NCBI GenBank assembly: GCA_903894565.1
Contig: CAITQP010000007.1
Span: 28,213-92,212 of the forward strand
Source: an uncultured bacterium
GTDB lineage: Bacteria; Patescibacteriota; Minisyncoccia; Phycocordibacterales; UBA9973
Direction of reading: 5' to 3'
Length of the DNA stretch: 64,000 bases
The notes beneath the pieces were generated by a model. The model did not search any database, was not told the DNA's origin, and saw only the letters and a list, made by a program, of their open reading frames with translations. Positions within the stretch are counted from its first letter, which is position 1. Each line of letters begins with the position of its first letter. A program made the translations under genes and the position numbers. This document shows positions 6,431 to 37,238 of the stretch, in pieces.

Positions 6431-6913
6431 TTATGGTTTGAGGTATCGTTTTGGCACATAATGTTCGCGCACAACGAGCCACAAAATGATGACATCCATC
6501 AGGATGAAGAGCGAGAGTGATAGTGAATAGCTCACGATCACGCAATATATTTCATACAAGAGCAGTCCCCCGAACCCAATGACCGCAACAGGAAACGACC
6601 ACTTTTTCTTAAAGTACAATCCAAAGATGATACCAAGCTTGATGATGCCGTGAGAGAGTAAATAAAATACGATAAAAAATTTGCTTGCTGCGGAGAGCTG
6701 AGTCACACCGCTCATGAGCAGATTCGACATGAAATCTCTCGGCATTTCTGTGAGTTCACCATGAGCAATCGTAAGTACAAACGTCGTTATCGCATTTGTA
6801 CTGATGAAATAAAAGAGAACCCCTGCAACAATCTCCAAAAAAGCCTGTAGGGCTTTCAGGAATAGGCCAATTTCATAAACAACGAATATTCTTTTTTCCT
6901 CGATTATTTTCAT
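6431..6913 (-). CDS. hypothetical integral membrane protein (160 aa)
   Basis: Four hydrophobic segments. Confidence 0.5.
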   Translation of the reverse strand: MKIIEEKRIFVVYEIGLFLKALQAFLEIVAGVLFYFISTNAITTFVLTIAHGELTEMPRDFMSNLLMSGVTQLSAASKFFIVFYLLSHGIIKLGIIFGLYFKKKWSFPVAVIGFGGLLLYEIYCVIVSYSLSLSLFILMDVIILWLVVREHYVPKRYLKP

Positions 6914-7066
6914 TTAATCTAAAATATCTATTTCTTAACGACTTTGCATTACCCCATGAGAGTGCAAGCACCAAAAATATATCCGGCTGTCAGAAGGACA
7001 ATGATCAAAAACGAAAGATAAACCTTTTTCATAGTACGATTATACCAAATTAAAAAAATCATCCCG

Positions 7067-7105
7067 AATAAAAAAGATTGCCAGGTAACATTTGCTACCT
7101 GGCAA
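7067..7105 (-). terminator. rho-independent terminator downstream of the NHL-repeat gene
   Basis: Inverted repeat TTGCCAGGTA / TACCTGGCAA (7078-7105) with an 8-nt loop, followed on the minus strand by TCTTTTTTATT. Confidence 0.5.
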
Positions 7106-7143
7106 TCAATGAACTATCGTACAAATTACTTACTCAAACGAAT

Positions 7144-8406
7144 TTATTTAATTATCGTAATTTGTTTTCGAACAAGCACTCTTCCGGACTTTGTCCCTAC
7201 GAGGGTATAAATATATGCTCCATTCGGAAGATTCTCATCCAAATAGTGATTTTTATTTTCAACCCACACAACCGCGCCCCTGAGGTCATAGACGATTATG
7301 GTACCTTCCTCTGCTGACTCTTGAGGCAGCACGGGGACAGCCGTTGGATCGTGCACGACTTTTCGCACACGATCATTCTCCACATCACAGATGTAGAAGT
7401 CGCCAGCTTCATCATACGCAATACCGCGAACGGCATTTATCCGTGCATCTGTTGCAGGACCTCCGTCTCCACCGTAACCGCTCACGCCAGTACCAACAAA
7501 TGCTGTGATAACACCTGACAGGTGTATCGTCCTGATTTCTGCATTTCCGCCGTCGGAAACAGAAATGTCTCCATTACGTGCGTTATACGCAAGATAGACC
7601 GGAGTCTCAAACTCAGCGCCAGTAGCAGGCCCACCATTGCCACTAGTACCAAATGTACCCGTTCCCGCAAGCGTAGTAATAATGCCATCCGTGCTTACCT
7701 TTCTGATTTTTATGTCACTCAAATCAGCAACGTAGATGTTTCCATTCTGGTCCGCACATAGACCACAGGGAGACATCAACTCTCCGTTCGTCGCAGGGCC
7801 ACCATCTCCGCTCGAACCAAAAACACCGGTCCCAGCAATAGTTGTGATAATTCCAAATGTATCAACTTTCCGGATACGATGGTGTCCGCAATCAGAGATA
7901 AACAAATTTCCCGTGTTATCAAAACACAGGCCGTTAATCGTGTTAAATTGCGCATTTGTTGCAGCTCCACCATCGCCGAGAGTGCTCCCTGGAGCATTCC
8001 CAGCAATAGTTGTGATAATTCCAAATGTATCAATTTTCCTAACTACATTATCGTCAGCAACGACGAGACTCCCCTTAGCATCAACAGTGAGGGTGTAGAT
8101 ATTGCTCATGCCCGCATTTGTTGCGGGGCCACCATCGCCGCTCGATACGCTTGATCCATTCCCAGCAATAGTTGTAACAATTCCAGATCTTGTTATTTTC
8201 CTAATTTTAAATGTGTAGGGATCTGAAAAATATACATTTCCGTTATACACGGAAACATCTCCGGGCGCAGTAATTTTCGCCCGAGTGGCTAGACCTCCGT
8301 CGCCACTGTACCCACGCACGCCGGTACCAGCAATCGTGCTGATATTTTGTGCATTCGCATTAATAGTGGACAAAACAAGGAGCGCCACCATAAGAACTTT
8401 CTTCAT
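7144..8406 (-). CDS. secreted NHL-repeat beta-propeller protein with C-terminal T9SS-type (Por secretion C-terminal) sorting domain
   Basis: Signal peptide MKKVLMVALLVLSTINANAQ. Repeated SGDGGPAT/NHL-like blades (IRKIDTFGIITTIAGN and IRKVDTFGIITTIAGT). The C-terminus IIVYDLRGAVVWVEN...LPNGAYIYTLV...K matches the T9SS C-terminal domain consensus. Confidence 0.65.
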   Translation of the reverse strand: MKKVLMVALLVLSTINANAQNISTIAGTGVRGYSGDGGLATRAKITAPGDVSVYNGNVYFSDPYTFKIRKITRSGIVTTIAGNGSSVSSGDGGPATNAGMSNIYTLTVDAKGSLVVADDNVVRKIDTFGIITTIAGNAPGSTLGDGGAATNAQFNTINGLCFDNTGNLFISDCGHHRIRKVDTFGIITTIAGTGVFGSSGDGGPATNGELMSPCGLCADQNGNIYVADLSDIKIRKVSTDGIITTLAGTGTFGTSGNGGPATGAEFETPVYLAYNARNGDISVSDGGNAEIRTIHLSGVITAFVGTGVSGYGGDGGPATDARINAVRGIAYDEAGDFYICDVENDRVRKVVHDPTAVPVLPQESAEEGTIIVYDLRGAVVWVENKNHYLDENLPNGAYIYTLVGTKSGRVLVRKQITIIK

Positions 8407-17973: not shown

Positions 17974-18148
17974 AAAACACCCGTCTTGGACTCGAACCGA
18001 TACGAACAGCAAAAATACCTTCCAATAGAAAGGTATTTTTGCGAATTCACGCACATTTTGAATTTTTGAGGCCTCTCGGACTCGAACCAAAATTTTGCGA
18101 ACAAACTTGCAAAATAAGGCGTCTCGGTCGGTCTCACTGTTTTGCTGC
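17974..18148. repeat. direct repeat copy A (~175 bp) containing tRNA T-arm-like motif and AT-rich hairpin
   Basis: About 80% identical to 19408..19581. Contains CTTGGACTCGAACC (17985-17998, a reverse-complement tRNA T-arm), the hairpin AGCAAAAATACCTT-N9-AAGGTATTTTTGC (18008-18042), and TCGGTCGGTCTCACTGTTTTGCTGC. Confidence 0.6.
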
Positions 18149-18247
18149 CGCACTGCGACTCGAACTTTTCTTGAAAATACGTTGCTAAATATAGACTTCG
18201 GTTTTCAATTTCTTTGAAATTCTTGGTTCGAGTCCGAGCAGGGTCAG

Positions 18248-19407: not shown

Positions 19408-19581
19408 AAACACCCGGCCTGGATTCGAACCAACTCAATTAGCAAAAATACCTTCGCACTAGAAGGTATTTTTGCTAATCCACGCACATTTTGAATTTTT
19501 GACGCTTCTCGGTCTATAACCAACATTTCCTAAAATACGTTGGTAATTAAGGCCTTTCGGTCGGTCTCACTGTTTTGCTGC
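19408..19581. repeat. direct repeat copy B (~174 bp) containing tRNA-Gln-like T-arm fragment and AT-rich hairpin
   Basis: CCTGGATTCGAACCAA (19418-19433) is identical to 16 nt of the tRNA-Gln 3' half at 31886-31901. Hairpin AGCAAAAATACCTT-N10-AAGGTATTTTTGC at 19441-19476. Confidence 0.6.
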
Positions 19582-28949: not shown

Positions 28950-30062
28950 ATGAAAACACCTTACGAAAACGAGCAGATAAAGAGGCAATTCTTTGAGCAG
29001 TTAAAAGGCGCTCGGGGGTTTGCCAAAAGCTCGGTGCGTACTCACGCCGACGCCATCACACAATGGGATACCTTCAATCAGAACGAGGACTATTCCACCT
29101 ACGATAAATCAAAAGCTGCCGCCTTTACGGAGTGGCTCAGCACGAGACCCGCCAAATCAAAATCCGGCAAAGTTTCCCTTGTTACCCAGTCGAACTATAT
29201 TCGCCGCATAAAGAAGTTCTTTGAGTGGCTTTGCGAACAGCCCGGCTACAAGAGCAAGATACAAAAAAACGATGTGGACTACTTACGCCTCTCAAAAGCG
29301 GATGCCCAAATCGCACGTTTGGGAACCACCAAAAAAATGCCTACCTTTGAGGACGCTAAAAAGATAATCGAGGGCATTGATGGCAAGTCCGAAATCGACA
29401 TGCGCGACCGTGCCCTCATCTCTTTTGCGCTCATCACGGGTGCTCGCATCAATGCCATCATTTCCTTGAAGATGAAAAGCTTTGACAAAGAGAAGAAACA
29501 AATCGACCAGAACCCAGGTGACGGAGTGAAGACCAAAAACACGAAACGAATACTTACCACATTCTTCCCAATTGGTTGGGACGATCCAGAAAAATATTTC
29601 ATGGAATGGTATGAGTACTTGGAGTCAAAGGGTTTTGGACCTGATGAGCCGATCTTTCCGATGACATCCCATTCTTTTGGCGGAGGAGAAAATAGCTACA
29701 GTAAAGAAGCCATTGGGCAAGATGCTTGGGTTGGCACAGGCGCGGCACGCAAGATTTTTGAAAAGCGATGCAAAAGTGCCTACCTTCAGTATTTCCACCC
29801 GCACTCCTTTCGCCATTTGGTTGTAAGCATCCTTAGCAAGAAACGCCTTACCGAGGAAGAGAAGAAAGCGATCAGCTTAAATCTGGGACACGAGAATGTC
29901 ACGACCACATTTGGATCATATGGATATGGCGCTATGAGCAATACGGATGCCGTCAAAATCGTTCAGAAATTGAAGGATATTCAAGAAGGTTCGAGCGATA
30001 CTCTGGCACTCACCGACCAAGAAAGGGCCGTTTTCGAGAAAATAGCTAAGCGTATCTTGTAG
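28950..30062 (+). CDS. int: tyrosine-type site-specific recombinase/integrase
   Basis: Catalytic Arg in ALITGARINAI, box II HPHSFRHLVV (HxxR), and LGHENVTTTFGSYGYG containing the catalytic Tyr region. Confidence 0.8.
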   Translation: MKTPYENEQIKRQFFEQLKGARGFAKSSVRTHADAITQWDTFNQNEDYSTYDKSKAAAFTEWLSTRPAKSKSGKVSLVTQSNYIRRIKKFFEWLCEQPGYKSKIQKNDVDYLRLSKADAQIARLGTTKKMPTFEDAKKIIEGIDGKSEIDMRDRALISFALITGARINAIISLKMKSFDKEKKQIDQNPGDGVKTKNTKRILTTFFPIGWDDPEKYFMEWYEYLESKGFGPDEPIFPMTSHSFGGGENSYSKEAIGQDAWVGTGAARKIFEKRCKSAYLQYFHPHSFRHLVVSILSKKRLTEEEKKAISLNLGHENVTTTFGSYGYGAMSNTDAVKIVQKLKDIQEGSSDTLALTDQERAVFEKIAKRIL

Positions 30063-30091
30063 ACTTGCAATGTAAACAATAGTAAAGTAAA

Positions 30092-30274
30092 ATGAAAGAC
30101 ATGGAACAAGATTTTTACACCGCCCGAGATTTGGCCGACAGGCTCGGCCTGAACATTATGACGATCTACCGCTGGATCGGAGCGAAGAAGCTCAAAGCGT
30201 ATAAGCTCGGCAAGGAATTCAGAATTGAGAAAAAGGATTTCGATGCTTTCTTAAAGAAGGCAAGCAATAAATAA
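30092..30274 (+). CDS. excisionase-family HTH DNA-binding protein (Xis/AlpA-like)
   Basis: 60 aa with YTARDLADRLGLNIMTIYRWI, the HTH_17 pattern. Confidence 0.6.
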   Translation: MKDMEQDFYTARDLADRLGLNIMTIYRWIGAKKLKAYKLGKEFRIEKKDFDAFLKKASNK

Positions 30275-30278
30275 CATT

Positions 30279-31925
30279 ATGCAAACAGAAGCACCACAAA
30301 AACTCAAATACGGCATGTACGGCCGAAAATCTAGCGAGACCGAAGATCGCCAGGTCCTTTCGATTGACTCCCAGATCGATAGCGCAAAAGCTATCTGCAA
30401 AAACCTCAATATCCGTATTGCGGATGAGGATGTTTTAACCGAGTCAAAATCAGCAAAGACCACAAACCATCGCCCGCTATTCAAGGAGATGCTCGACCGA
30501 CTAGAGCATGGCAAGATCAACGCCATCGTCGCGTGGCACGCTGACCGCCTCTCGCGTAACGCCATCGACTCCGCACTCCTCGTCGATATGATGGATCGCG
30601 GCAAGCTGATCGAAATTGTTACTCCTGGGCAAACGTATCGAAATACGCCATTTGATAAGTTCATGTTCACTCTCGCTTGTACCCAAGCAAAAATGGAAAA
30701 CGACAAGAAAGGTATCGACGTTACGCGAGGGCTTACAAAGAAAGCGACTATGGGTATGTTCCCTGGCCCTGCGCCGTTCGGCTATCTGAATGATAAGTTT
30801 ACAGAGAAAGGAAATAAAAAAATCATCACCGACAAAGTGCGTCTCCCTCTTATCCGCAAAATGATGGAGCTGATGCTAACCGGCACATACGGACCACTTC
30901 AAATCCGAGAGATTGCAACGAACGAGTGGGGCTACCGAACTCCCAAAGGCAAGAAGATGGGTCGAAGCACGATCTATCGCATCTTCACAAATACCTTTTA
31001 CTACGGCATGTACGAGTACCCACTCGGAAGCGGTCGTTGGTATCGTGGAACGCACGAGACGATCATCACCGAGGAGGACTACGACAAAATCCAAGCACTC
31101 CTCGGTCGTAAGGGCCGTCCTCGTCCGAAGACCCATATCTTTGATTTCGTAGGAATGATGAAGTGCGCCGACTGCGGCGCGTCTATTACAGCCGAAACAA
31201 AGTTCAAGAAACTCGCCAATGGCGATGTGAACACTTACGTTTACTATCACTGCACCAAGAAGCTCAATCCGAACTGCACGCAAGGATCAATAGAGGAAAA
31301 GGAACTTAAAAAGCAGATCGTCCGCGAGATCGACAAAATCGAAATACCAACCGAGTTCCACGCCTTTGCCATGAAATGGTGGAAGACCGAAAACGAGAAG
31401 GAAGTCGACGACCGCAACACTATCGTCGAAGCCCAACAGAGGGCCTATAAGGCTTGCCTTGCGAAGATAGACGGCCTGACCAATATGAGAGCGGGCGGCG
31501 AAATCGAGGGGGACGAATTTATCCGACGCCGAGAGCCGCTTCTTGAAGAAAAGAAGCGTTTGGAGAAACTATTTGAAGGCACGGGTAAACGCGTTGATGC
31601 CTGGATGAAGACCGGCGACGAAATGTTTACTTTCATCGAGCGAGCAATAAACCGCTTCACTTACGGTACACTTGAAGACCGCCGAGCCATACTTGCGGCT
31701 CTCGGCTCGAACCTACTCATAAAAGACAAAATACTCAGTATTGATATAGAGAATTGTCTATTCCCAATACAAAATATTTCAGGCACTGTCCGAGACATAA
31801 AAGAACGGCTCGAACCAATAAATACCCTGGAAAAACAAGGACAGTTTGAGCAAATGTGCTCTAACAGTCCAGTAGTGCTGCCAGACCTGGATTCGAACCA
31901 AGATACACTGCTCCAGAGGCAGTAG
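30279..31925 (+). CDS. large serine recombinase (resolvase domain plus recombinase domain plus zinc ribbon)
   Basis: N-terminal YGMYGRKSSETEDRQ...SIDSQ (catalytic Ser) and a resolvase fold. Zinc ribbon CADCGAS...YYHC. The 3' 48 nt overlap the tRNA-Gln on the opposite strand. Confidence 0.85.
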   Translation: MQTEAPQKLKYGMYGRKSSETEDRQVLSIDSQIDSAKAICKNLNIRIADEDVLTESKSAKTTNHRPLFKEMLDRLEHGKINAIVAWHADRLSRNAIDSALLVDMMDRGKLIEIVTPGQTYRNTPFDKFMFTLACTQAKMENDKKGIDVTRGLTKKATMGMFPGPAPFGYLNDKFTEKGNKKIITDKVRLPLIRKMMELMLTGTYGPLQIREIATNEWGYRTPKGKKMGRSTIYRIFTNTFYYGMYEYPLGSGRWYRGTHETIITEEDYDKIQALLGRKGRPRPKTHIFDFVGMMKCADCGASITAETKFKKLANGDVNTYVYYHCTKKLNPNCTQGSIEEKELKKQIVREIDKIEIPTEFHAFAMKWWKTENEKEVDDRNTIVEAQQRAYKACLAKIDGLTNMRAGGEIEGDEFIRRREPLLEEKKRLEKLFEGTGKRVDAWMKTGDEMFTFIERAINRFTYGTLEDRRAILAALGSNLLIKDKILSIDIENCLFPIQNISGTVRDIKERLEPINTLEKQGQFEQMCSNSPVVLPDLDSNQDTLLQRQ

Positions 31926-31948
31926 TCCTACCATTAGACGATCTGGCA
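31878..31948 (-). tRNA. tRNA-Gln (anticodon CTG)
   Basis: Cloverleaf folded by hand: acceptor TGCCAGA/TCTGGCA (U1-A72 as in bacterial tRNA-Gln), D arm GTCT/GGAC, anticodon stem ACTGC/GCAGT with loop CTCTGGA, T arm CTTGG-TTCGAAT-CCAGG, discriminator G. CCA is not encoded. Confidence 0.8.
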
Positions 31949-32048: not shown

Positions 32049-32783
32049 ATGACAGACGAACAACAACACGTAGACAAGAGTGGACACCGACACCTCACGC
32101 TCGATGAAATCAAGCAGGGATGTGTCGAAGTAGCCGGCGACAATCCAGACGGCGTACGCATTTGTCGCATCAACGAAGAACTCAAACAAGGCATAACAGA
32201 AATGGAGACGATCGAACGCTCCGTCACTTTTTATGGCTCAGCACGTTTCAAAGAAGGCGATGAATTCTATGACAAAGCTCGTCATCTTGGAGGCCGTATC
32301 GCCAAAGAACTCGGCTTCACTGTCGTGACTGGCGGAGGTCCTGGCATCATGGAAGCTGGCAACCGCGGTGCTTTTGAATCGGGTGGCAAATCTGTTGGCC
32401 TCTCGATCAAACTTCCGATGGAACAGCACAACAACGAATATGTCACAGACGATGTTCCCTTCTACTTCTTCTTTGCTCGCAAAGTCGCACTCTCGTTCTC
32501 GTCGGAAGTGTTCGTCTTCTTCCCTGGAGGATTCGGCACAATGGATGAAATGTTTGAAGTACTCACGCTCGTACAGACAGGCAAACTCAAACCAATTCCC
32601 CTCGTCTTTTACGGCGTCGAATTCTGGACACCGCTCATCAATTTCTTCAAATTAACAATGCTTGAGAAATATCAGACCATTAGTCCAAAAGACATGGATC
32701 TCTTCACCGTCACAGACGACGACAATCTCGTCATCGACATCGTCAAAAACGCAAAGTCTCGCGAAGGCAACCACTTAGATTAG
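32049..32783 (+). CDS. LOG-family protein (cytokinin riboside 5'-monophosphate phosphoribohydrolase / TIGR00730 Rossmann-fold)
   Basis: GGGPGIMEA and PGGFGTMDE motifs. Confidence 0.8.
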   Translation: MTDEQQHVDKSGHRHLTLDEIKQGCVEVAGDNPDGVRICRINEELKQGITEMETIERSVTFYGSARFKEGDEFYDKARHLGGRIAKELGFTVVTGGGPGIMEAGNRGAFESGGKSVGLSIKLPMEQHNNEYVTDDVPFYFFFARKVALSFSSEVFVFFPGGFGTMDEMFEVLTLVQTGKLKPIPLVFYGVEFWTPLINFFKLTMLEKYQTISPKDMDLFTVTDDDNLVIDIVKNAKSREGNHLD

Positions 32784-32923
32784 CCGCCACAAAATAAAAA
32801 TAGCAAAAATACCTTTTGGAAGCACTCTCGGAGCGCGACGGCGAGAGAGAGAGGCGAAATTTCTTCAGAAATTTACGCCGGTGCTTCTGAAAGGTATTTT
32901 TGCTATTTTTATTTTATGGCGGC
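32783..32923. repeat. long imperfect palindrome (stem ~40 bp) enclosing conserved 55-nt loop - copy 1 of structured element
   Basis: Arms CCGCCACAAAATAAAAATAGCAAAAATACCTTTTGGAAGCAC and GTGCTTCTGAAAGGTATTTTTGCTATTTTTATTTTATGGCGG. The loop at 32826-32880 has about 85% identity to the reverse complement of 36366-36420. Confidence 0.6.
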
Positions 32924-32943
32924 TACTAAAAGTAGTTTTTTGT
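32923..32943 (+). terminator. rho-independent terminator (CTACTAAAAGTAG + T-run)
   Basis: Short hairpin followed by TTTTTTGTG, sitting between the convergent LOG and pyrG genes. Confidence 0.4.
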
Positions 32944-32948
32944 GCGCG

Positions 32949-34619
32949 CTATGCGCGTTTTGCTCGTGTAGCTGCTGCCTCAGCAAAAGCCTTGAAGAGT
33001 GGATGTGGTGCAAGTGGTCGTGATTTGAATTCTGGATGGAATTGTGTGCCAAGGAAGAATGGATGAACGTCTTTTGGAAGTTCAGCGATCTCCATGAGCT
33101 CGCCGTCAGGCGAGCGTCCTGAGAACACAAGTCCTGCCCCCTCGATATCCTTGATATACGCAGGATTCACCTCGTAGCGATGACGGTGGCGCTCACTGAT
33201 GGTGTCTTTGGCATATGCTGTACGCGCCATTGTGCCCGTACCGAGATATGCATCGTACGCGCCGAGACGCATGGTACCTCCATAGTCATGAGCATCGAGC
33301 TTCCCTTTCTGAGATTCCATAATATCGATCACAAGACGTGATGAATCTGGATTGATCTCTCGAGTATTCGCATCTTTCCATCCGAGTTTGTGACGAGCAT
33401 ATTCAATCACCGCAAGTTGCATTCCGTAACACAACCCAAAATATGGAATTTTGTTTTCACGCGCAAACTGAATTGCAGAAATAATTCCTTCGATACCACG
33501 CGCTCCAAATCCTCCAGGAACAATGATGCCATCGTATTGCGCGAGATCTTTGATACGCTCAGGATGCTGTTCAAAATCAACTGAGTTTATCCATGTGAGC
33601 ACCGGCTTCTGATTGATAGCGTAACTCGCATGACGAATCGCTTCAATCACTGAGATATATGCATCTGAAAGAACATAGTTTCCCGTATCAAAATATTTTC
33701 CAACCACCGCAATCTTGAGTTCACCTTTTGCTGTTGCAATACGATGGGTAAACATATCCCAAAGCTCTGCACTCTCAACGCGATTCTTTTTGCATGAGAG
33801 AAAGAGAATATCACACAAAATATCTGAAAGTCCTTCCTTTTCAAAATTTGCTGGAATGTCGTAAATACTGTCAACGTCAGGAGCACTGATCACACGACCT
33901 TCAGGAACGTTACAAAAGAGTGAGAGCTTTTCTTTGCGCTTCTCGTCGAGAGGATCATTACTACGAGCAACCAGAATGTCTGGCTGAATTCCAGAACCAT
34001 TCAGTGTACGGACTGCATGCTGAGTTGGCTTGGTCTTCATCTCCCCAACCTTACTTGGTACAGGAAGATACGAGACCATAACAACAGCAACATCTTTTGG
34101 ATTCTTGAGCTTCATCATACGTGCAGCCTCAAGGAAGAGAATATTTTCGTATTCACCAATCGTTCCTCCGACTTCAATCACGACGATATCGGCCCCAGCT
34201 TTTTTCTGAGCAGTCTCGATTCGGTCGATAACCTCAAGTGGGATATGTGGCACAACTTGTACGCATTTTCCTGCGTAATCAAGATTGCGCTCTTTGTTGA
34301 TGACGGTCTGATACACACGTCCAGTCGTCATGTAGTTTACGCGTGTAAGGTCGATGTTCAAGAATCGTTCGTAGTTGCCCATGTCCTGATCGGTCTCATC
34401 GCCATCATCAAGCACAAACACCTCTCCGTGTTCAGTCGGATTCATCGTACCCGCATCAACGTTGATGTATGGATCAATCTTTATTGCCGTTGCACGAAGA
34501 CCGCGATCTTGCATGATCTTGGCAATAGAACTAGCGGTGATCCCCTTGCCCACTCCGGAAATGACACCTCCTACGACAAACACATATTTTGGATTTTCTG
34601 CGGTCTTTTTGTTGAACAT
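32949..34619 (-). CDS. pyrG: CTP synthase
   Basis: 556 aa with an N-terminal synthase domain (VVGGVISGVGKGI) and a C-terminal glutamine amidotransferase domain (GGTMRLGAY). Confidence 0.9.
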   Translation of the reverse strand: MFNKKTAENPKYVFVVGGVISGVGKGITASSIAKIMQDRGLRATAIKIDPYINVDAGTMNPTEHGEVFVLDDGDETDQDMGNYERFLNIDLTRVNYMTTGRVYQTVINKERNLDYAGKCVQVVPHIPLEVIDRIETAQKKAGADIVVIEVGGTIGEYENILFLEAARMMKLKNPKDVAVVMVSYLPVPSKVGEMKTKPTQHAVRTLNGSGIQPDILVARSNDPLDEKRKEKLSLFCNVPEGRVISAPDVDSIYDIPANFEKEGLSDILCDILFLSCKKNRVESAELWDMFTHRIATAKGELKIAVVGKYFDTGNYVLSDAYISVIEAIRHASYAINQKPVLTWINSVDFEQHPERIKDLAQYDGIIVPGGFGARGIEGIISAIQFARENKIPYFGLCYGMQLAVIEYARHKLGWKDANTREINPDSSRLVIDIMESQKGKLDAHDYGGTMRLGAYDAYLGTGTMARTAYAKDTISERHRHRYEVNPAYIKDIEGAGLVFSGRSPDGELMEIAELPKDVHPFFLGTQFHPEFKSRPLAPHPLFKAFAEAAATRAKRA

Positions 34620-35600: not shown

Positions 35601-36281
35601 TTAAATCATATATCGCCCATCCTTGTCATCTCGAACAACACGGCCCTTTTCGAGTGTGATGACACGTTTCCCAATCGAGTCGACAACTCCACGATTGTGC
35701 GTAGTGAGAATAATCGTCGTGCCTAATTCGTTGATTTTTTTGAGAATCTGCACTATCTCGTAGGTACTGATGGGGTCGAGGTTCCCTGTTGGCTCATCAG
35801 CAACAATGATCTCTGGCTGATTGATGATGGCGCGCGCAATCGCGAGACGCTGTTTCTCTCCGCCAGAAAGTTGTCCAGGAAAATGGTCCTTCAATTCAAG
35901 TAGGTTTACAAGGTCAAGCACATGAGGAACATCGGCGGCGATTTCTTCGTCGCTTTTGCCAGCGGCCTCCATTGCAAACGAAATATTTTCAAATGCAGTC
36001 TTGTTTGGGAGTAATTTAAAATCCTGAAACACAGTCCCGATGCGTCGGCGGAGACGCGTCAAATCACGACCACTCAAACGGTTGACATCGAGCGACTCAA
36101 ACATGACAGTACCTTCGGTTGGTTCTTCTTCTGCGATAATGAGTTTAACGAGTGTGGTTTTGCCGGCTCCAGAGTGGCCGACGACGGAGACGAATTCCCC
36201 TGCATTTATCGAAATGGTGACTTCTTCAAGAGCTACTGACCCTTGGGGGTATTCTTTTTTGACTCCTTTGAAATAGATCAT
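35601..36281 (-). CDS. ftsE: cell division ATP-binding protein FtsE
   Basis: Walker A GHSGAGKTT, ABC signature LSGGEKQR, and Walker B IIVADEPT. Confidence 0.85.
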   Translation of the reverse strand: MIYFKGVKKEYPQGSVALEEVTISINAGEFVSVVGHSGAGKTTLVKLIIAEEEPTEGTVMFESLDVNRLSGRDLTRLRRRIGTVFQDFKLLPNKTAFENISFAMEAAGKSDEEIAADVPHVLDLVNLLELKDHFPGQLSGGEKQRLAIARAIINQPEIIVADEPTGNLDPISTYEIVQILKKINELGTTIILTTHNRGVVDSIGKRVITLEKGRVVRDDKDGRYMI

Positions 36282-36334
36282 TGGTAACGGGGTCTAGTAT
36301 ATCATATTTCACGAAACCTTAAAGCTCAGACCCA

Positions 36335-36451
36335 CAAGATTGGGCACACGCCCTCTCAAAAGGACCAGCGTAAAATCCCGAAGGATTTTCGCCTCCCTCT
36401 CGCGCCGTCGCGCTCCGAGAGTCCTTTTGAGAGGGCGTGTGCCCAATCTTG
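36335..36451. repeat. long palindrome (31-bp stem) enclosing conserved 55-nt loop - copy 2 of structured element (opposite orientation)
   Basis: Arms CAAGATTGGGCACACGCCCTCTCAAAAGGAC and GTCCTTTTGAGAGGGCGTGTGCCCAATCTTG. The loop at 36366-36420 is the reverse complement of the copy-1 loop with compensatory changes in an internal hairpin. Confidence 0.6.
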
Positions 36452-36455
36452 CGAT

Positions 36456-37238
36456 TTGTACTTTCGTGATGAAATCTTGATATACTGGACATATATGCAT
36501 GAAACAATACTGTTTATTGCGACTTTTGTTGTAGGAGTAATCGCAAGTACTATTGGTACACTCGTTGGTGGTGGAAGTCTCATATCTATCCCCTTTCTTA
36601 TTTTTCTCGGACTACCACCCCAAATGGCGATAGCTACTGATCGATTCGGTGGACTCGGCCAACTAACGGCACTCTACAAATTCTGGAAATCTAAAAAAAT
36701 TATCTGGAAGTTTGTTTTCCTGTTCTCAGTTTTGAGTCTTGCTGGATCTCTCATCGGCTCTCATCTTCTCCTCCAAATAAATCCTTCAATTTTAAAAAGT
36801 GTCATCGGAGCACTCATGCTCATCCTCCTCCCAGTTATTTTTTTGAAACGAAATATCGGTGTACAGCCAAGTGAAGTACACGGAATTAAAAAAATCCTTG
36901 GTTGTATCATCTATTTCTGTGTACAAATTTACGCAGGATTTTTTGGCGCTGGCTCTGGGACACTTATCTTTTACACAATGATGAGCTTCTTTGGTCTCAC
37001 AATCACTGAAGCAAGCGCAACTCAAATCATCCCTGTCACAATCCTCGATATTGCCTCACTTATTGTTTTCGCCTCACACGGACTCATCAATTACAAAATT
37101 GGATTCTTGTTTCTTGCTGGAACAGCGACGGGTGGATATATCGGCTCTCACATTGCACTCAAAAAAGGCGACAAATGGATCAAGCAACTTTTTGCCTTTA
37201 TTGTTATCGCACTTGTCATAAAATTGCTCTTTTTCTAA
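36456..37238 (+). CDS. TauE/SafE-family (DUF81) membrane transporter
   Basis: Multiple transmembrane helices with Gly-rich LVGGGSLISIPFLIFLG and FFGAGSGTLIFYTMM repeats typical of TauE/SafE. The true start may be the ATG at 36495. Confidence 0.6.
   Translation: MYFRDEILIYWTYMHETILFIATFVVGVIASTIGTLVGGGSLISIPFLIFLGLPPQMAIATDRFGGLGQLTALYKFWKSKKIIWKFVFLFSVLSLAGSLIGSHLLLQINPSILKSVIGALMLILLPVIFLKRNIGVQPSEVHGIKKILGCIIYFCVQIYAGFFGAGSGTLIFYTMMSFFGLTITEASATQIIPVTILDIASLIVFASHGLINYKIGFLFLAGTATGGYIGSHIALKKGDKWIKQLFAFIVIALVIKLLFF

Follow-up and report, generated by a model that had tools for sequence, protein, structure and literature searches.

Two palindromic elements in the window

The window, by which we mean the whole 64-kb stretch of DNA analysed here, carries two palindromic elements, and no ORF fits inside either of them. 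Copy 1 lies between the convergent genes LOG (32049-32783, plus strand) and pyrG (32949-34619, minus strand), and copy 2 between the divergent genes ftsE (35601-36281, minus strand) and TauE; the gene context and coordinates given in a preliminary description of the locus are correct. A full-sensitivity covariance-model search of the 64 kb found these two copies only, at 32812-32894 on the plus strand (84.5 bits) and at 36352-36434 on the minus strand (90.4 bits). The 18-mer TCTCGGAGCGCGACGGCG occurs exactly twice, at 32826-32843 (plus) and 36403-36420 (minus); two or more occurrences were seen in 0 of 100 shuffles. Fold z-scores at the two copies range from -13 to -16. Coordinates of the individual features are collected in Table 1.

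The arms of copy 1 (32769-32825 and 32881-32937, 57 nt each) are 88% complementary around a 55-nt spacer, and the fold reaches -85 kcal/mol (z = -13.3). Its P1 5' arm begins at 32783, the base with which the LOG stop codon ends. In copy 2 the outer stem P0 is followed inwards by an asymmetric internal loop, by P1 and finally by the three-way-junction core, a layout that recurs in other lineages; its 31-nt P1 arms are 100% complementary, again around a 55-nt spacer. The 8-bp P0 pairing of copy 2 is a reading by eye, and the minimum-free-energy fold draws a somewhat different outer pairing. Termini similar to this P0, CACGAAAC / TACAAAAC, occur on copies in JAUYLB01 and JAUYJR01.

The two 55-nt loops, described earlier as about 85% identical, match at 47 of 55 positions (85.5%) on opposite strands. 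Both stems had been called perfect, which holds for the 31 bp of copy 2; the inner 43 bp of copy 1 (32783-32825 with 32881-32923) include two G·T pairs and one C·A pair, the remainder being Watson-Crick. They had also been called completely different in sequence. This holds in part: the inner 14 nt match at 9 of 14 positions and both stems follow the family architecture. A chance or artefactual origin is ruled out by the shuffles, by the identical sequence found in two other assemblies and by hundreds of covarying relatives. A hairpin-adapter-type artefact is also a misfit, since the copies differ by compensatory changes and their flanks are unique.

Table 1. Features of the two elements, in window coordinates
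Feature	Position	Strand	Basis or content
Copy 1, whole palindromic element	32769..32937	+ (sense is the strand reading TCTCGG)	inverted repeat, covariance-model match, fold
Copy 1, P1 5' arm	32783..32825	+	outer GC clamp, then A-rich tract, then inner CCTTTTGGAAGCAC
Copy 1, P2	32826..32849	+	consensus structure and pair counts
Copy 1, junction J2/3 (AGA)	32850..32852	+	family consensus N-G-A (alignments)
Copy 1, P3	32853..32880	+	fold and pair counts
Copy 1, P1 3' arm	32881..32923	+	inner GTGCTTCTGAAAGG, then T-rich outer tract
Copy 2, whole element	36309..36469	- (sense is minus)	sequence reading and fold of extended region
Copy 2, P0, one strand	36309..36316	-	TCACGAAA on plus; pairs with 36462-36469
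Copy 2, P1, 3' arm of sense strand	36335..36365	-	31/31 complementary
Copy 2, 55-nt core	36366..36420	-	P2 36397-36420, J2/3 36394-36396, P3 36367-36393, junction G 36366
Copy 2, P1, 5' arm of sense strand	36421..36451	-	inverted repeat
Copy 2, P0, second strand	36462..36469	-	TTTCGTGA on plus; direct sequence reading

Structure, covariation and strand specificity

The 55-nt core is predicted to form a three-way junction of P1, whose arms vary, P2 and P3. P2 has a near-invariant base (YUCUC/GAGAG), a GGA bulge and a covarying 4-bp tip, for which more than 15 Watson-Crick combinations occur among relatives. P3 is a covarying hairpin with a bulged A, and double changes are found in relatives at all 11 of its pairs. 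In copy 1, UCUC (32826-32829) pairs with GAGA (32845-32848), with a further C32825-G32849 pair possible; the GGA bulge lies at 32830-32832, and the tip stem (32833-32836 with 32841-32844), which has a G·A at its base, carries the loop GACG (32837-32840). P3 of copy 1 has a lower stem GGCG/CGCC, an upper stem AAATTTC/GAAATTT, the loop TTCA, the bulged A at 32875 and the junction G at 32880. The upper stem becomes AAAATCC/GGATTTT in copy 2, a change that keeps pairing through two double changes, as had been noticed before; the P3 loop of copy 2 is cUUCGg.

The significance of covariation was judged against shuffled and slid-partner controls. In two alignments, 90.3% and 92.8% of cells were paired; shuffling lowered this to 67% and 61.5%, and sliding the partners to 58% or less. 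Double changes occurred at 25 of 32 and 30 of 32 pairs, and 0 of 500 shuffles reached the observed values. The inner 12-14 bp of P1 are conserved across the family, GA/GA internal loops recur among copies, and many copies have an A tract followed by the stem and a T tract. With more than 200 relatives aligned, covariation is overwhelming, and the preliminary claim of a selected secondary structure, made from two copies, stands on this comparative evidence. K-turn, hammerhead and other ribozyme cores were set aside, their consensus motifs being absent on inspection by eye.

G·U pairs outnumber A·C pairs about 3:1 on the core strand (34:9 and 156:52), and the ratio stays at 47:14 where the element is antisense to its neighbours. 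Relative to co-directional neighbours, 51 copies are antisense and 25 sense. The wobble bias stays with the strand of the element and not with gene direction. We infer that one strand, as RNA or single-stranded DNA, must fold. For copy 2, the covariance model gives 11.4 bits to the antisense strand versus 90.4 bits to the sense strand.

Family size and taxonomic range

A covariance-model search for further copies and a check against Rfam had both been proposed. Many further copies exist: exact-pattern scans and the covariance model together give a total of more than 200, including 81 loci in GTDB genomes, where all taxon-naming records are Patescibacteria, and at least 120 metagenome loci. Two covariance-model searches returned 103 and 112 matches. 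Taxon-named sources are Patescibacteria (CPR) MAGs throughout, and the element spans the classes Paceibacteria and Saccharimonadia. Predicted rod length is 79-263 nt (median 129 nt). We rejected a viral origin: viral contigs gave 0 matches to a 23-nt pattern, and the 18-mer matches found there are chance matches in coding sequence.

When the window elements and 39 loci were compared with Rfam 15, only tRNA, rRNA and tmRNA passed the gathering threshold. At the elements themselves, the sub-threshold matches are to generic miRNA-precursor hairpins only, and no ribozyme or sRNA family matches even at E = 10. A literature search, which included the core sequence, returned no description of the family. 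The palindromic repeat family is apparently uncatalogued.

Genomic neighbourhood

The 166 flanking proteins fall into 142 clusters without a recurrent neighbour gene, and no integrase, RAYT or TnpA was found among them. Copies occupy all four intergenic orientation classes, divergent promoter regions included, and adjoin tRNA, tmRNA and rRNA genes, the 23S gene among them. Distances from core to ORF are 30-50 nt, and flanks are unrelated. Genes bracketed by two copies are housekeeping genes according to Pfam, for example recA, trmD and murA. At one locus (L205), two copies form an adjacent inverted pair.

Terminator-like hairpins lie just outside copy 1 on both sides, and a T-rich tract lies inside its stem. 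Promoter scans found none, and a terminator scan found none at either window element. A classical intrinsic terminator was rejected on this result and on copy 2, which is located in a divergent promoter region and has no T tract. A gene-specific cis-regulatory RNA was rejected because no neighbour gene recurs and both orientations occur. A link to the nearby integrase, serine recombinase and tRNA island found no support, since elsewhere the element occurs without them.

Mobility, termini and empty sites

Some genomes contain dispersed copies that share the whole unit at a median identity of 79-84%. Niyogibacteria JACOYI01 has at least nine loci, and eight of its copies, at unrelated loci, share about 165 nt (median identity 84%) with the termini TAGAACTCAT...ATGAGTTCTA. 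JAUYLB01 has 6-7 loci, with six copies that likewise share the whole unit; the termini are (TA)CAAAACTC...GAGTTTTG(TA). In multi-copy genomes the conserved unit measures about 150-165 nt and has TA-flanked inverted termini, and paralogues carry compensated variants of P0 and P3. Terminal inverted repeats are shared among the copies within JACOYI01 and among those within JAUYLB01, and are less clear in the lineage of the window. Most JACOYI01 copies are TA-flanked, in genomes that are AT-rich and with TA...TA itself being palindromic. In part, the evidence supports termini that are short inverted repeats with TA at their borders. The Niyogibacteria loci contained no additional occurrences of the termini, and neither a transposase or other partner nor an autonomous element with the same ends turned up in about 1.5 Mb of partial-genome loci.

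Empty sites occur in relatives. The pyrG-LOG spacer measures 17 nt in L104, and empty RF-ftsE sites measure a few nucleotides in ELA106 and L101 and about 70 nt in L105 and L106. The element has been gained and lost between related genomes. A search for empty hairpins at orthologous sites had been suggested; the empty orthologous sites carry no long hairpin of any kind. Moreover, 45-55 nt of arm per side are conserved between loci of one genome. From these two observations, the arms belong to the element, travelling with the core, and not to pre-existing host hairpins. A segmental duplication including the flanks had been named as a finding that would speak against the proposal, and the flanks are not duplicated. 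The only recent gain near the window, at RF-ftsE, may have come with the TauE gene, not by transposition of the element alone.

Insertion in 16S rRNA

In one organism the element is found inside the SSU rRNA (L168 479-560, L050 281-362), where it occupies the loop of 16S helix 40 in sense orientation with TA on both sides. A relative (L181) lacks the insert and has the helix 40 loop TTA with a single TA. This is the one clean filled/empty pair, and it is compatible with insertion at TA with TA duplication; further pairs are too diverged to read, and copy 2 of the window has no clear TA duplication. About 40 nt of arm arrived together with the core at this site, and the inserted segment does not include the stem of the host helix 40.

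Intervening sequences of rRNA are excised by RNase III, and the fragments are not re-ligated. RNase III could plausibly act on perfect stems of 31-43 bp. Short ORF-less rRNA insertions are reported to be common and uncharacterised in CPR, especially in Saccharibacteria (PMC11270868).

Retention at orthologous sites

The pyrG-LOG copy is retained in five lineages, down to 76% amino-acid identity of pyrG, with compensatory changes in P1, P2 and P3. About 12 more orthologous pairs, with flank identity of 69-85%, have the element on both sides of the comparison. Arms are homologous between orthologous copies; the P1 5' arm of copy 1, for example, is homologous to those in L093, L095 and L106. At the RF-ftsE copy of L095 the core is damaged and the arms have decayed too. 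The outer parts of some palindromes hold host sequence, namely the LOG 3' end (copy 1), the pyrG stop codon (ELA106) and a 16S segment (L168). That copies persist at orthologous sites suggests a co-opted role for some of them, for instance as structures of 3' UTRs, of processing or of a terminator-like kind.

Comparison with known systems

ERIC (IRU) and Correia (NEMIS) repeats resemble the element in being ORF-less, imperfect intergenic palindromes of 100-170 nt that lie in either orientation, number tens of copies per genome and form long hairpins when co-transcribed. They share with it TA-bounded termini, the lack of a transposase nearby and the keeping of some orthologous copies. However, their sequence is unrelated, they belong to another host phylum, and the strand-specific wobble bias sets the element apart. 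ERIC and Correia repeats have orientation-dependent effects on mRNA, with cleavage by RNase III or RNase E. MITEs conserve terminal repeats, whereas in the element the three-way junction at the centre, with its fixed bulge, is the most conserved part and the arms vary freely but still pair; a MITE-like repeat that conserves its centre and not its ends points to a recognition partner.

Intervening sequences of rRNA, like the element at L168 and L050, put an extended stem-loop in place of the loop of a helix and are sporadic among relatives. The great majority of copies of the element lie outside rRNA genes, however, and classical IVS families are not known as genome-wide repeats or for a conserved three-way-junction tip. 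REP/BIME sequences with their RAYTs are likewise dispersed extragenic palindromes, whose single-strand fold is thought to be recognised, and can form adjacent inverted pairs of the kind seen at L205. REPs, however, are 20-40 nt long, begin with 5' GTAG, number hundreds of copies and are RAYT-linked, none of which applies here. Integron attC sites share a conserved fold despite varying sequence, strand specificity and extrahelical bases, but their conservation lies at the outer R/L boxes, in cassette arrays beside intI. The element is conserved apically and stands solitary between housekeeping genes without a linked integrase.

Patescibacteria have highly streamlined genomes of about 1 Mb. Selfish repeats or unexplained non-coding structure would be unexpected in such genomes, yet the element is widespread across classes and visibly under structural selection. 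It is a covariation-rich candidate for a new class of structured RNA or DNA and may serve as a marker of CPR genome plasticity, possibly of recombination breakpoints. It also offers a specific hypothesis to explain the short rRNA insertions without ORFs that are reported from CPR.

Possible origins and functions

On balance, we consider that the two loci have diverged within one family of small, MITE-like palindromes without ORFs that extends across Patescibacteria. The miniature mobile element proposed earlier survives here in part: multi-copy dispersal, presence/absence polymorphism and the 16S insertion argue for it, but what moves is not the 55-nt core by itself. The copied unit is instead the whole rod, made up of P0, the internal loop, P1 and the three-way-junction tip. 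It sits in dispensable places (every type of intergenic spacer, once the helix 40 loop) in either orientation to its neighbours, and is gained and lost between related genomes. One strand of it would have to fold, and selection would keep the arms paired whatever their sequence, through compensatory or concerted change; copying of adjacent host sequence may sometimes lengthen the palindrome. The tip YUCUC-GGA...GAGAG-NGA is probably held nearly invariant by selection, which makes it a putative recognition module for a trans-acting partner, either a mobilising enzyme or an RNA-binding or processing protein. By analogy with rRNA intervening sequences excised by RNase III, the self-contained rod might make insertion harmless to host RNA. 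Against this explanation stand the failure to find a partner gene in about 1.5 Mb of loci, the single clean filled/empty pair for TA duplication beside TA-rich termini in AT-rich genomes, and the RF-ftsE gain that may have come with TauE. In addition, a cut-and-paste double-stranded DNA transposon needs neither a strand-specific fold nor a conserved centre, ordinary MITEs conserve their ends and not the middle, and a purely selfish repeat would not usually keep intact orthologous copies for so long.

More tentatively, the conserved junction may represent a functional module of a new kind, made of RNA or single-stranded DNA and apparently restricted to Patescibacteria, which is carried by the mobile rod or drives it. 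A lineage-specific protein might bind there, or the module might serve as a signal for catalysis or processing that makes insertion into transcribed DNA harmless, also in rRNA. If true, the module could account for the many short uncharacterised rRNA insertions of Saccharibacteria.

It is rather unlikely that the element is primarily a cis-acting RNA of the host (for example an RNase III processing site, a stabiliser of the 3' or 5' ends of mRNA or stable RNA, or an unusual bidirectional terminator), inherited vertically and seldom duplicated, with a mobility that is incidental or ancient. Such a role would suit the retention of orthologous copies with compensatory changes over deep divergence, the joint decay of core and arms in the RF-ftsE copy of L095 and the sense-oriented copy within 16S rRNA. 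Copy 1, between convergent genes with terminator-like hairpins outside it, would fall in both 3' UTRs. The A tract-stem-T tract layout of many copies and their proximity to tmRNA, 23S and tRNA genes point the same way, and the G·U bias, GA/GA internal loops and cUUCGg loop are RNA-like. But orientation is not fixed and is, if anything, antisense (51 versus 25), yet the G·U bias stays on the strand of the element. All four intergenic types are used, divergent promoter regions included, and copy 2 and many others lack a U tract. Dispersal of the whole unit at a median identity of 79-84%, and its absence from the same site in close relatives, also argue against infrequent duplication and vertical descent.

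We regard as improbable a single-stranded DNA substrate for recombination or transposition by a tyrosine recombinase or HUH enzyme, of the attC, IS200/IS605 or REP/RAYT type. The strand-specific fold, independent of host transcription direction, the conserved bulged bases (the GGA bulge and the bulged A) and the stems that vary in sequence while conserving structure would all be expected of one, and at some loci genes are flanked by two copies. These flanked genes, however, are core housekeeping genes (recA, trmD, murA) and form no cassette arrays, and neighbouring integrase, RAYT or TnpA genes were not found. The conserved sequence is at the tip, while the attC R/L boxes or the REP GTAG are found at the stem foot, and IS200/IS605 elements make no target duplication, versus the TA flanks seen here.

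A free-standing small RNA gene or self-cleaving ribozyme with its own promoter is very doubtful. Its conserved junction nucleotides and bulge do resemble a ligand-binding, protein-binding or catalytic core, and strand specificity is independent of neighbouring genes, but the 30-50 nt between core and ORF, with unrelated flanks and promoter-free scans, cannot accommodate a conserved promoter or terminator. The absence of an Rfam ribozyme or sRNA match even at E = 10, and the presence of several to many copies per genome, speak against it too.

Least credible is a 55-nt mini-element entering the loops of host hairpins whose stems are host sequence: the copy in the helix 40 loop, the outer arms that differ among loci of the window lineage and the host-derived outer parts of some palindromes (LOG 3' end, pyrG stop codon in ELA106, 16S segment in L168) would fit it, but even at the 16S site the core brought about 40 nt of arm with it and the helix 40 stem is not part of the insert, arms of 45-55 nt recur at loci of one genome that are otherwise unrelated, empty sites lack a long hairpin and the inner 12-14 bp of P1 are family-conserved.

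At one locus (L101), the arms are homologous and the core is flipped, which might suggest an invertible switch; the 55-bp core has no promoter-like sequence. Several copies can fall within 8-14 kb.

Two copies and a wider family

The two loci singled out in the preliminary description are present, with cores identical at 47 of 55 positions, and Pfam assignments agree that copy 1 lies between convergent LOG and pyrG and copy 2 between divergent ftsE and TauE. The window contains exactly two occurrences of the 18-mer TCTCGGAGCGCGACGGCG, one per strand; none of the shuffled sequences had two. The long perfect stems described earlier hold for copy 2, whose 31-nt arms are 100% complementary, but not for copy 1, whose 57-nt arms are 88% complementary and whose inner 43 bp include two G.T pairs and one C.A pair. 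Predicted folding energies are –82 to –91 kcal/mol (z ∼ –13 to –16). Searched by covariance model without filters, the 64 kb window gives just these two copies, each on a single strand. Identical sequence was found in two other assemblies, whose contigs end inside the copy 2 hairpin (contigs L011 and L010 stop at window positions 36364 and 36423, exactly within it). The breaks probably arise from the 31-bp perfect inverted repeat through a k-mer effect; alternatively they could stem from heterogeneity, such as variation in the orientation of the core.

The finding is genuine and broader than the window alone could reveal. A 23-nt exact pattern of hairpin P2 of the core matched 81 loci in a set of one genome per species (185,579 species). 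All records among them that name a taxon are Patescibacteria, the remainder being titled only 'bacterium', and the groups represented are Paceibacteria-type (Niyogi-, Kaiser-, Yonath-, Taylor-, Lipton-, Harrison- and Nomurabacteria) and Saccharibacteria. The viral contigs scanned with this pattern gave no match. At least 120 metagenome loci match a looser pattern with the P2 tip stem left free. The covariance-model search proposed earlier, with a model built from 47 copies, returned 103 and 112 matches in the fetched loci, some of which fit neither exact pattern. Rfam 15 holds no such family (only generic miRNA-hairpin models score, far under threshold), and the literature searched, with the core sequence as text included, does not describe the element. 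The family is large and, by its named records, confined to Patescibacteria; it belongs with the palindromic repeat elements already known from bacteria and is itself new to Rfam 15 and the searched literature.

Structure, covariation and strand bias

In the consensus structure, the 55-nt 'loop' forms a three-way junction. The base of P2 is formed by the last base of the 5' arm (C/U) and UCUC, paired with GAGA-G; beyond it come a GGA bulge, a 4-bp tip stem and a GACG-type closing loop. A short N-G-A junction leads to P3. Its lower stem has 4 bp and its upper stem 6–7 bp, with a conserved A bulged out on the 3' side between them, and AGCA is a frequent loop sequence. G(U R) returns from P3 to the long stem P1. 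Going outward, P1 is followed in most lineages by an internal loop (sometimes GA/GA) and a further stem, P0. The rod measures 79–263 nt (median 129 nt). In several loci (L012, L027, L033, L064, L084 and others) P1 carries a symmetric C-GA-G / C-GA-G internal loop (tandem G.A) 5–8 bp from the junction, as well as a single A.G or G.A adjoining the junction; this could be a protein-binding motif.

In the metagenome set, standard pairs occupy 92.8% of cells, versus 61.5% in shuffled controls and no more than 58% when partners are slid. Double changes occur in 30 of 32 pairs, and the covariation score (0.746 versus 0.18) was matched by 0 of 500 shuffles; the genome set gave a similar result. In the second scan, with the tip free, the P2 tip stem appears as GCGC/GCGC, GCAC/GUGC, CCGC/GCGG, GCCC/GGGC, AGCC/GGCU, AGAC/GUCU and more than 10 other Watson-Crick combinations. 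Because the search patterns fixed the P2 base, the GGA bulge and the junction, invariance at these positions is partly ascertainment; copies found only by the model mostly retain them.

On the core strand, G.U pairs in P1 outnumber A.C pairs, which would be G.U on the opposite strand (34:9 in a Watson-Crick-seeded extension, 156:52 in a larger set). The ratio is unchanged (47:14) in copies antisense to both neighbours. Hence, which strand folds is set by the element itself and not by host transcription. We infer that the folded molecule could be either RNA or single-stranded DNA.

The arms as part of the element

Insertion of the 55-nt core into pre-existing hairpins, one of the readings first offered, is unsupported for these copies, since the arms are shared between loci and empty sites have no long hairpin. 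In the Niyogibacteria genome JACOYI01 the whole ∼165 nt is common to 8 copies at unrelated loci (median identity 84%; termini TAGAACTCAT...ATGAGTTCTA), and in JAUYLB01, another multi-copy genome, ∼150 nt is common to 6 copies with ends (TA)CAAAACTC...GAGTTTTG(TA). Paralogues carry compensated variants in P0 (TTT/AAA to CCC/GGG) and P3. In the window's genus, the inner 12–14 bp of P1 are common to different loci, and the outer arms share a plan of GC clamp and A-rich tract. As for empty orthologous sites in relatives, the pyrG-LOG spacer of L104 is 17 nt, and RF-ftsE spacers without the element measure a few nt in ELA106 and L101 and ∼70 nt in L105 and L106.

Constrained host sequence lies inside the outer palindrome in three cases. 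Copy 1 takes in the final 15 nt of LOG, the ELA106 copy takes in the pyrG stop codon, and the arms at locus L168 each carry a copy of the neighbouring 16S segment GGAAGGTGAGGATGACGCC (17 of 20 positions, local score 13 versus 6–9 for controls). As the host sequence is constrained on one side, the unconstrained side must have become complementary to it. Such growth could proceed through selection for a longer stem or template-switch conversion of quasi-palindromes. The L168 arms (∼455–475 and 575–592, compared with 16S at 611–630) hold direct and inverted copies of this conserved segment, so that the 3' arm could pair with the 5' arm or with downstream rRNA.

Insertion into 16S rRNA genes

A flank search for filled and empty pairs brought to light copies within the SSU rRNA gene, in sense orientation, at L168 and L050 (a Saccharibacteria MAG). 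Helix 40 reads CCACAC-TTA-GTGTGG in the relative L181 and CCCAGCTT-T-TA-[GCTCGG...TTAGC]-TA-C-AAGCTGGG in L168. Provisionally, this one clean case has the pattern expected from duplication of the loop TA; we prefer duplication because TA as part of the element would leave an impossible 2-nt ancestral loop. Most JACOYI01 copies are likewise TA-bounded. A published survey reports short insertions without ORFs as frequent in CPR rRNA genes, above all those of Saccharibacteria, and as uncharacterised; it suggests that some are RNase III-type intervening sequences (PMC11270868). Some of these insertions may belong to the present family, whose copies may undergo RNase III processing. The 16S rRNA gene of L181 is itself split (6595–7352) by a ∼760-nt insertion after model position ∼546, presumably a CPR rRNA intron or insertion of a known type.

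Gain, loss and persistence

Copies at pyrG-LOG with homologous arms occur not only in the window but also in L095 and L093 (pyrG identity 98%) and L106 (76%). In these orthologues an indel in one arm recurs in the other, and P1, P2 (GCGC/GCGC to CCGC/GCGG) and P3 show compensatory substitutions. In L101 (∼81% pyrG identity) the arms are apparently homologous and the core is inverted (L101 7690–7772 versus L093 7686–7768), through either recombination between the arms or independent re-insertion. L104 (82%) has no element at this site. About a dozen other orthologous pairs with flank identity of 69–85% have the element in both members, and a few lack it. Only the window and the L095 group have the RF-ftsE copy, which is perfect in the window and decayed in both core and arms in L095. 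Between RF and ftsE, none of the relatives examined (ELA106, L095, L101, L105, L106) has the TauE gene that adjoins copy 2, and gene and element may have been acquired together. In polymorphism and long structure-constrained retention, ERIC-type elements are a closer match than a purely selfish repeat. Identity to L095 across window positions 32783–32949 is 99% on the LOG side of copy 1 and 90% on the pyrG side, a jump suggestive of recombination with its breakpoint at the element or close to it.

Genomic context and nature of the element

Copies are almost always intergenic and closely packed, with a core-to-ORF distance of typically 30–50 nt. Among 155 unique copies, those between co-directional genes are antisense in 51 cases and sense in 25, while convergent genes flank 26 and divergent genes 17. 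No neighbour gene recurs (166 flanking proteins fall into 142 clusters). Genes between two copies are recA, trmD, murA-like, nth-like, a glycosyltransferase and RNase J; further copies are found between tRNA genes and upstream of tmRNA or 23S rRNA.

Overall, the evidence best supports a mobile palindromic element of MITE/ERIC/IVS-like kind, Patescibacteria-wide, which would transpose with TA duplication. Its rod would be a self-contained fold inside any transcript receiving the insertion, and the conserved strand-specific three-way junction would serve as a recognition module for a putative partner, possibly with some benefit to the host. For a MITE it is unusual, as its centre is conserved instead of its ends, its fold is strand-specific and no transposase was found. 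Given these three oddities, the element may instead have a role in host RNA, recombine by way of single-stranded DNA, or be a functional RNA module of a new kind. A classical terminator is opposed by the missing T tract at copy 2 and many other copies, and a gene-specific regulator by the varied orientations and sites and the absence of a recurrent neighbour.

Neighbouring features in the window

Terminator-like hairpins with T tracts lie symmetrically just outside copy 1, each in the 3' coding end of the opposite convergent gene (the scan expects ∼0.8 chance matches per region). With these, copy 1 would fall in both 3' UTRs, the LOG and pyrG mRNAs reading through it before termination.

Coordinates of features in the window
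Feature	Position	Strand	Remark
Inverted and direct repeats	17979-18244; 19412-19581		
Integrative-element-like block	28950-31948		just upstream of LOG
Tyrosine integrase	28950-30062		in block
HTH_17 excisionase-like ORF	30092-30274		in block
Large serine recombinase	30279-31925		3' end overlaps tRNA-Gln
tRNA-Gln	31877-31948	-	
Terminator-like hairpin	32763-32750	-	
Copy 1	32769-32937	+	
Terminator-like hairpin	32941-32957	+	
Copy 2	36309-36469	-	
Copy 2 P0	36309-36316 / 36462-36469		then asymmetric internal loop and 31-bp P1; our own reading of the sequence, the predicted fold pairing the outermost part somewhat differently
TauE	36495-37238		

At the same tRNA-Gln, relatives carry different cargo (N6_N4 methyltransferase, ResIII helicase, serine recombinase). 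The repeats listed first contain tRNA T-arm-like GGTTCGAGTCCGAG with no called tRNA gene, and regions matching them occur in loci of relatives; they may derive from fragments of tRNAs or be what is left of attachment sites. In some genomes the element itself is densely packed (L205 8805–9021; L159 1892–2346; L189; L194), with two inverted copies 50 nt apart, alternation with tRNA genes, or 3–4 copies per 12–14 kb.
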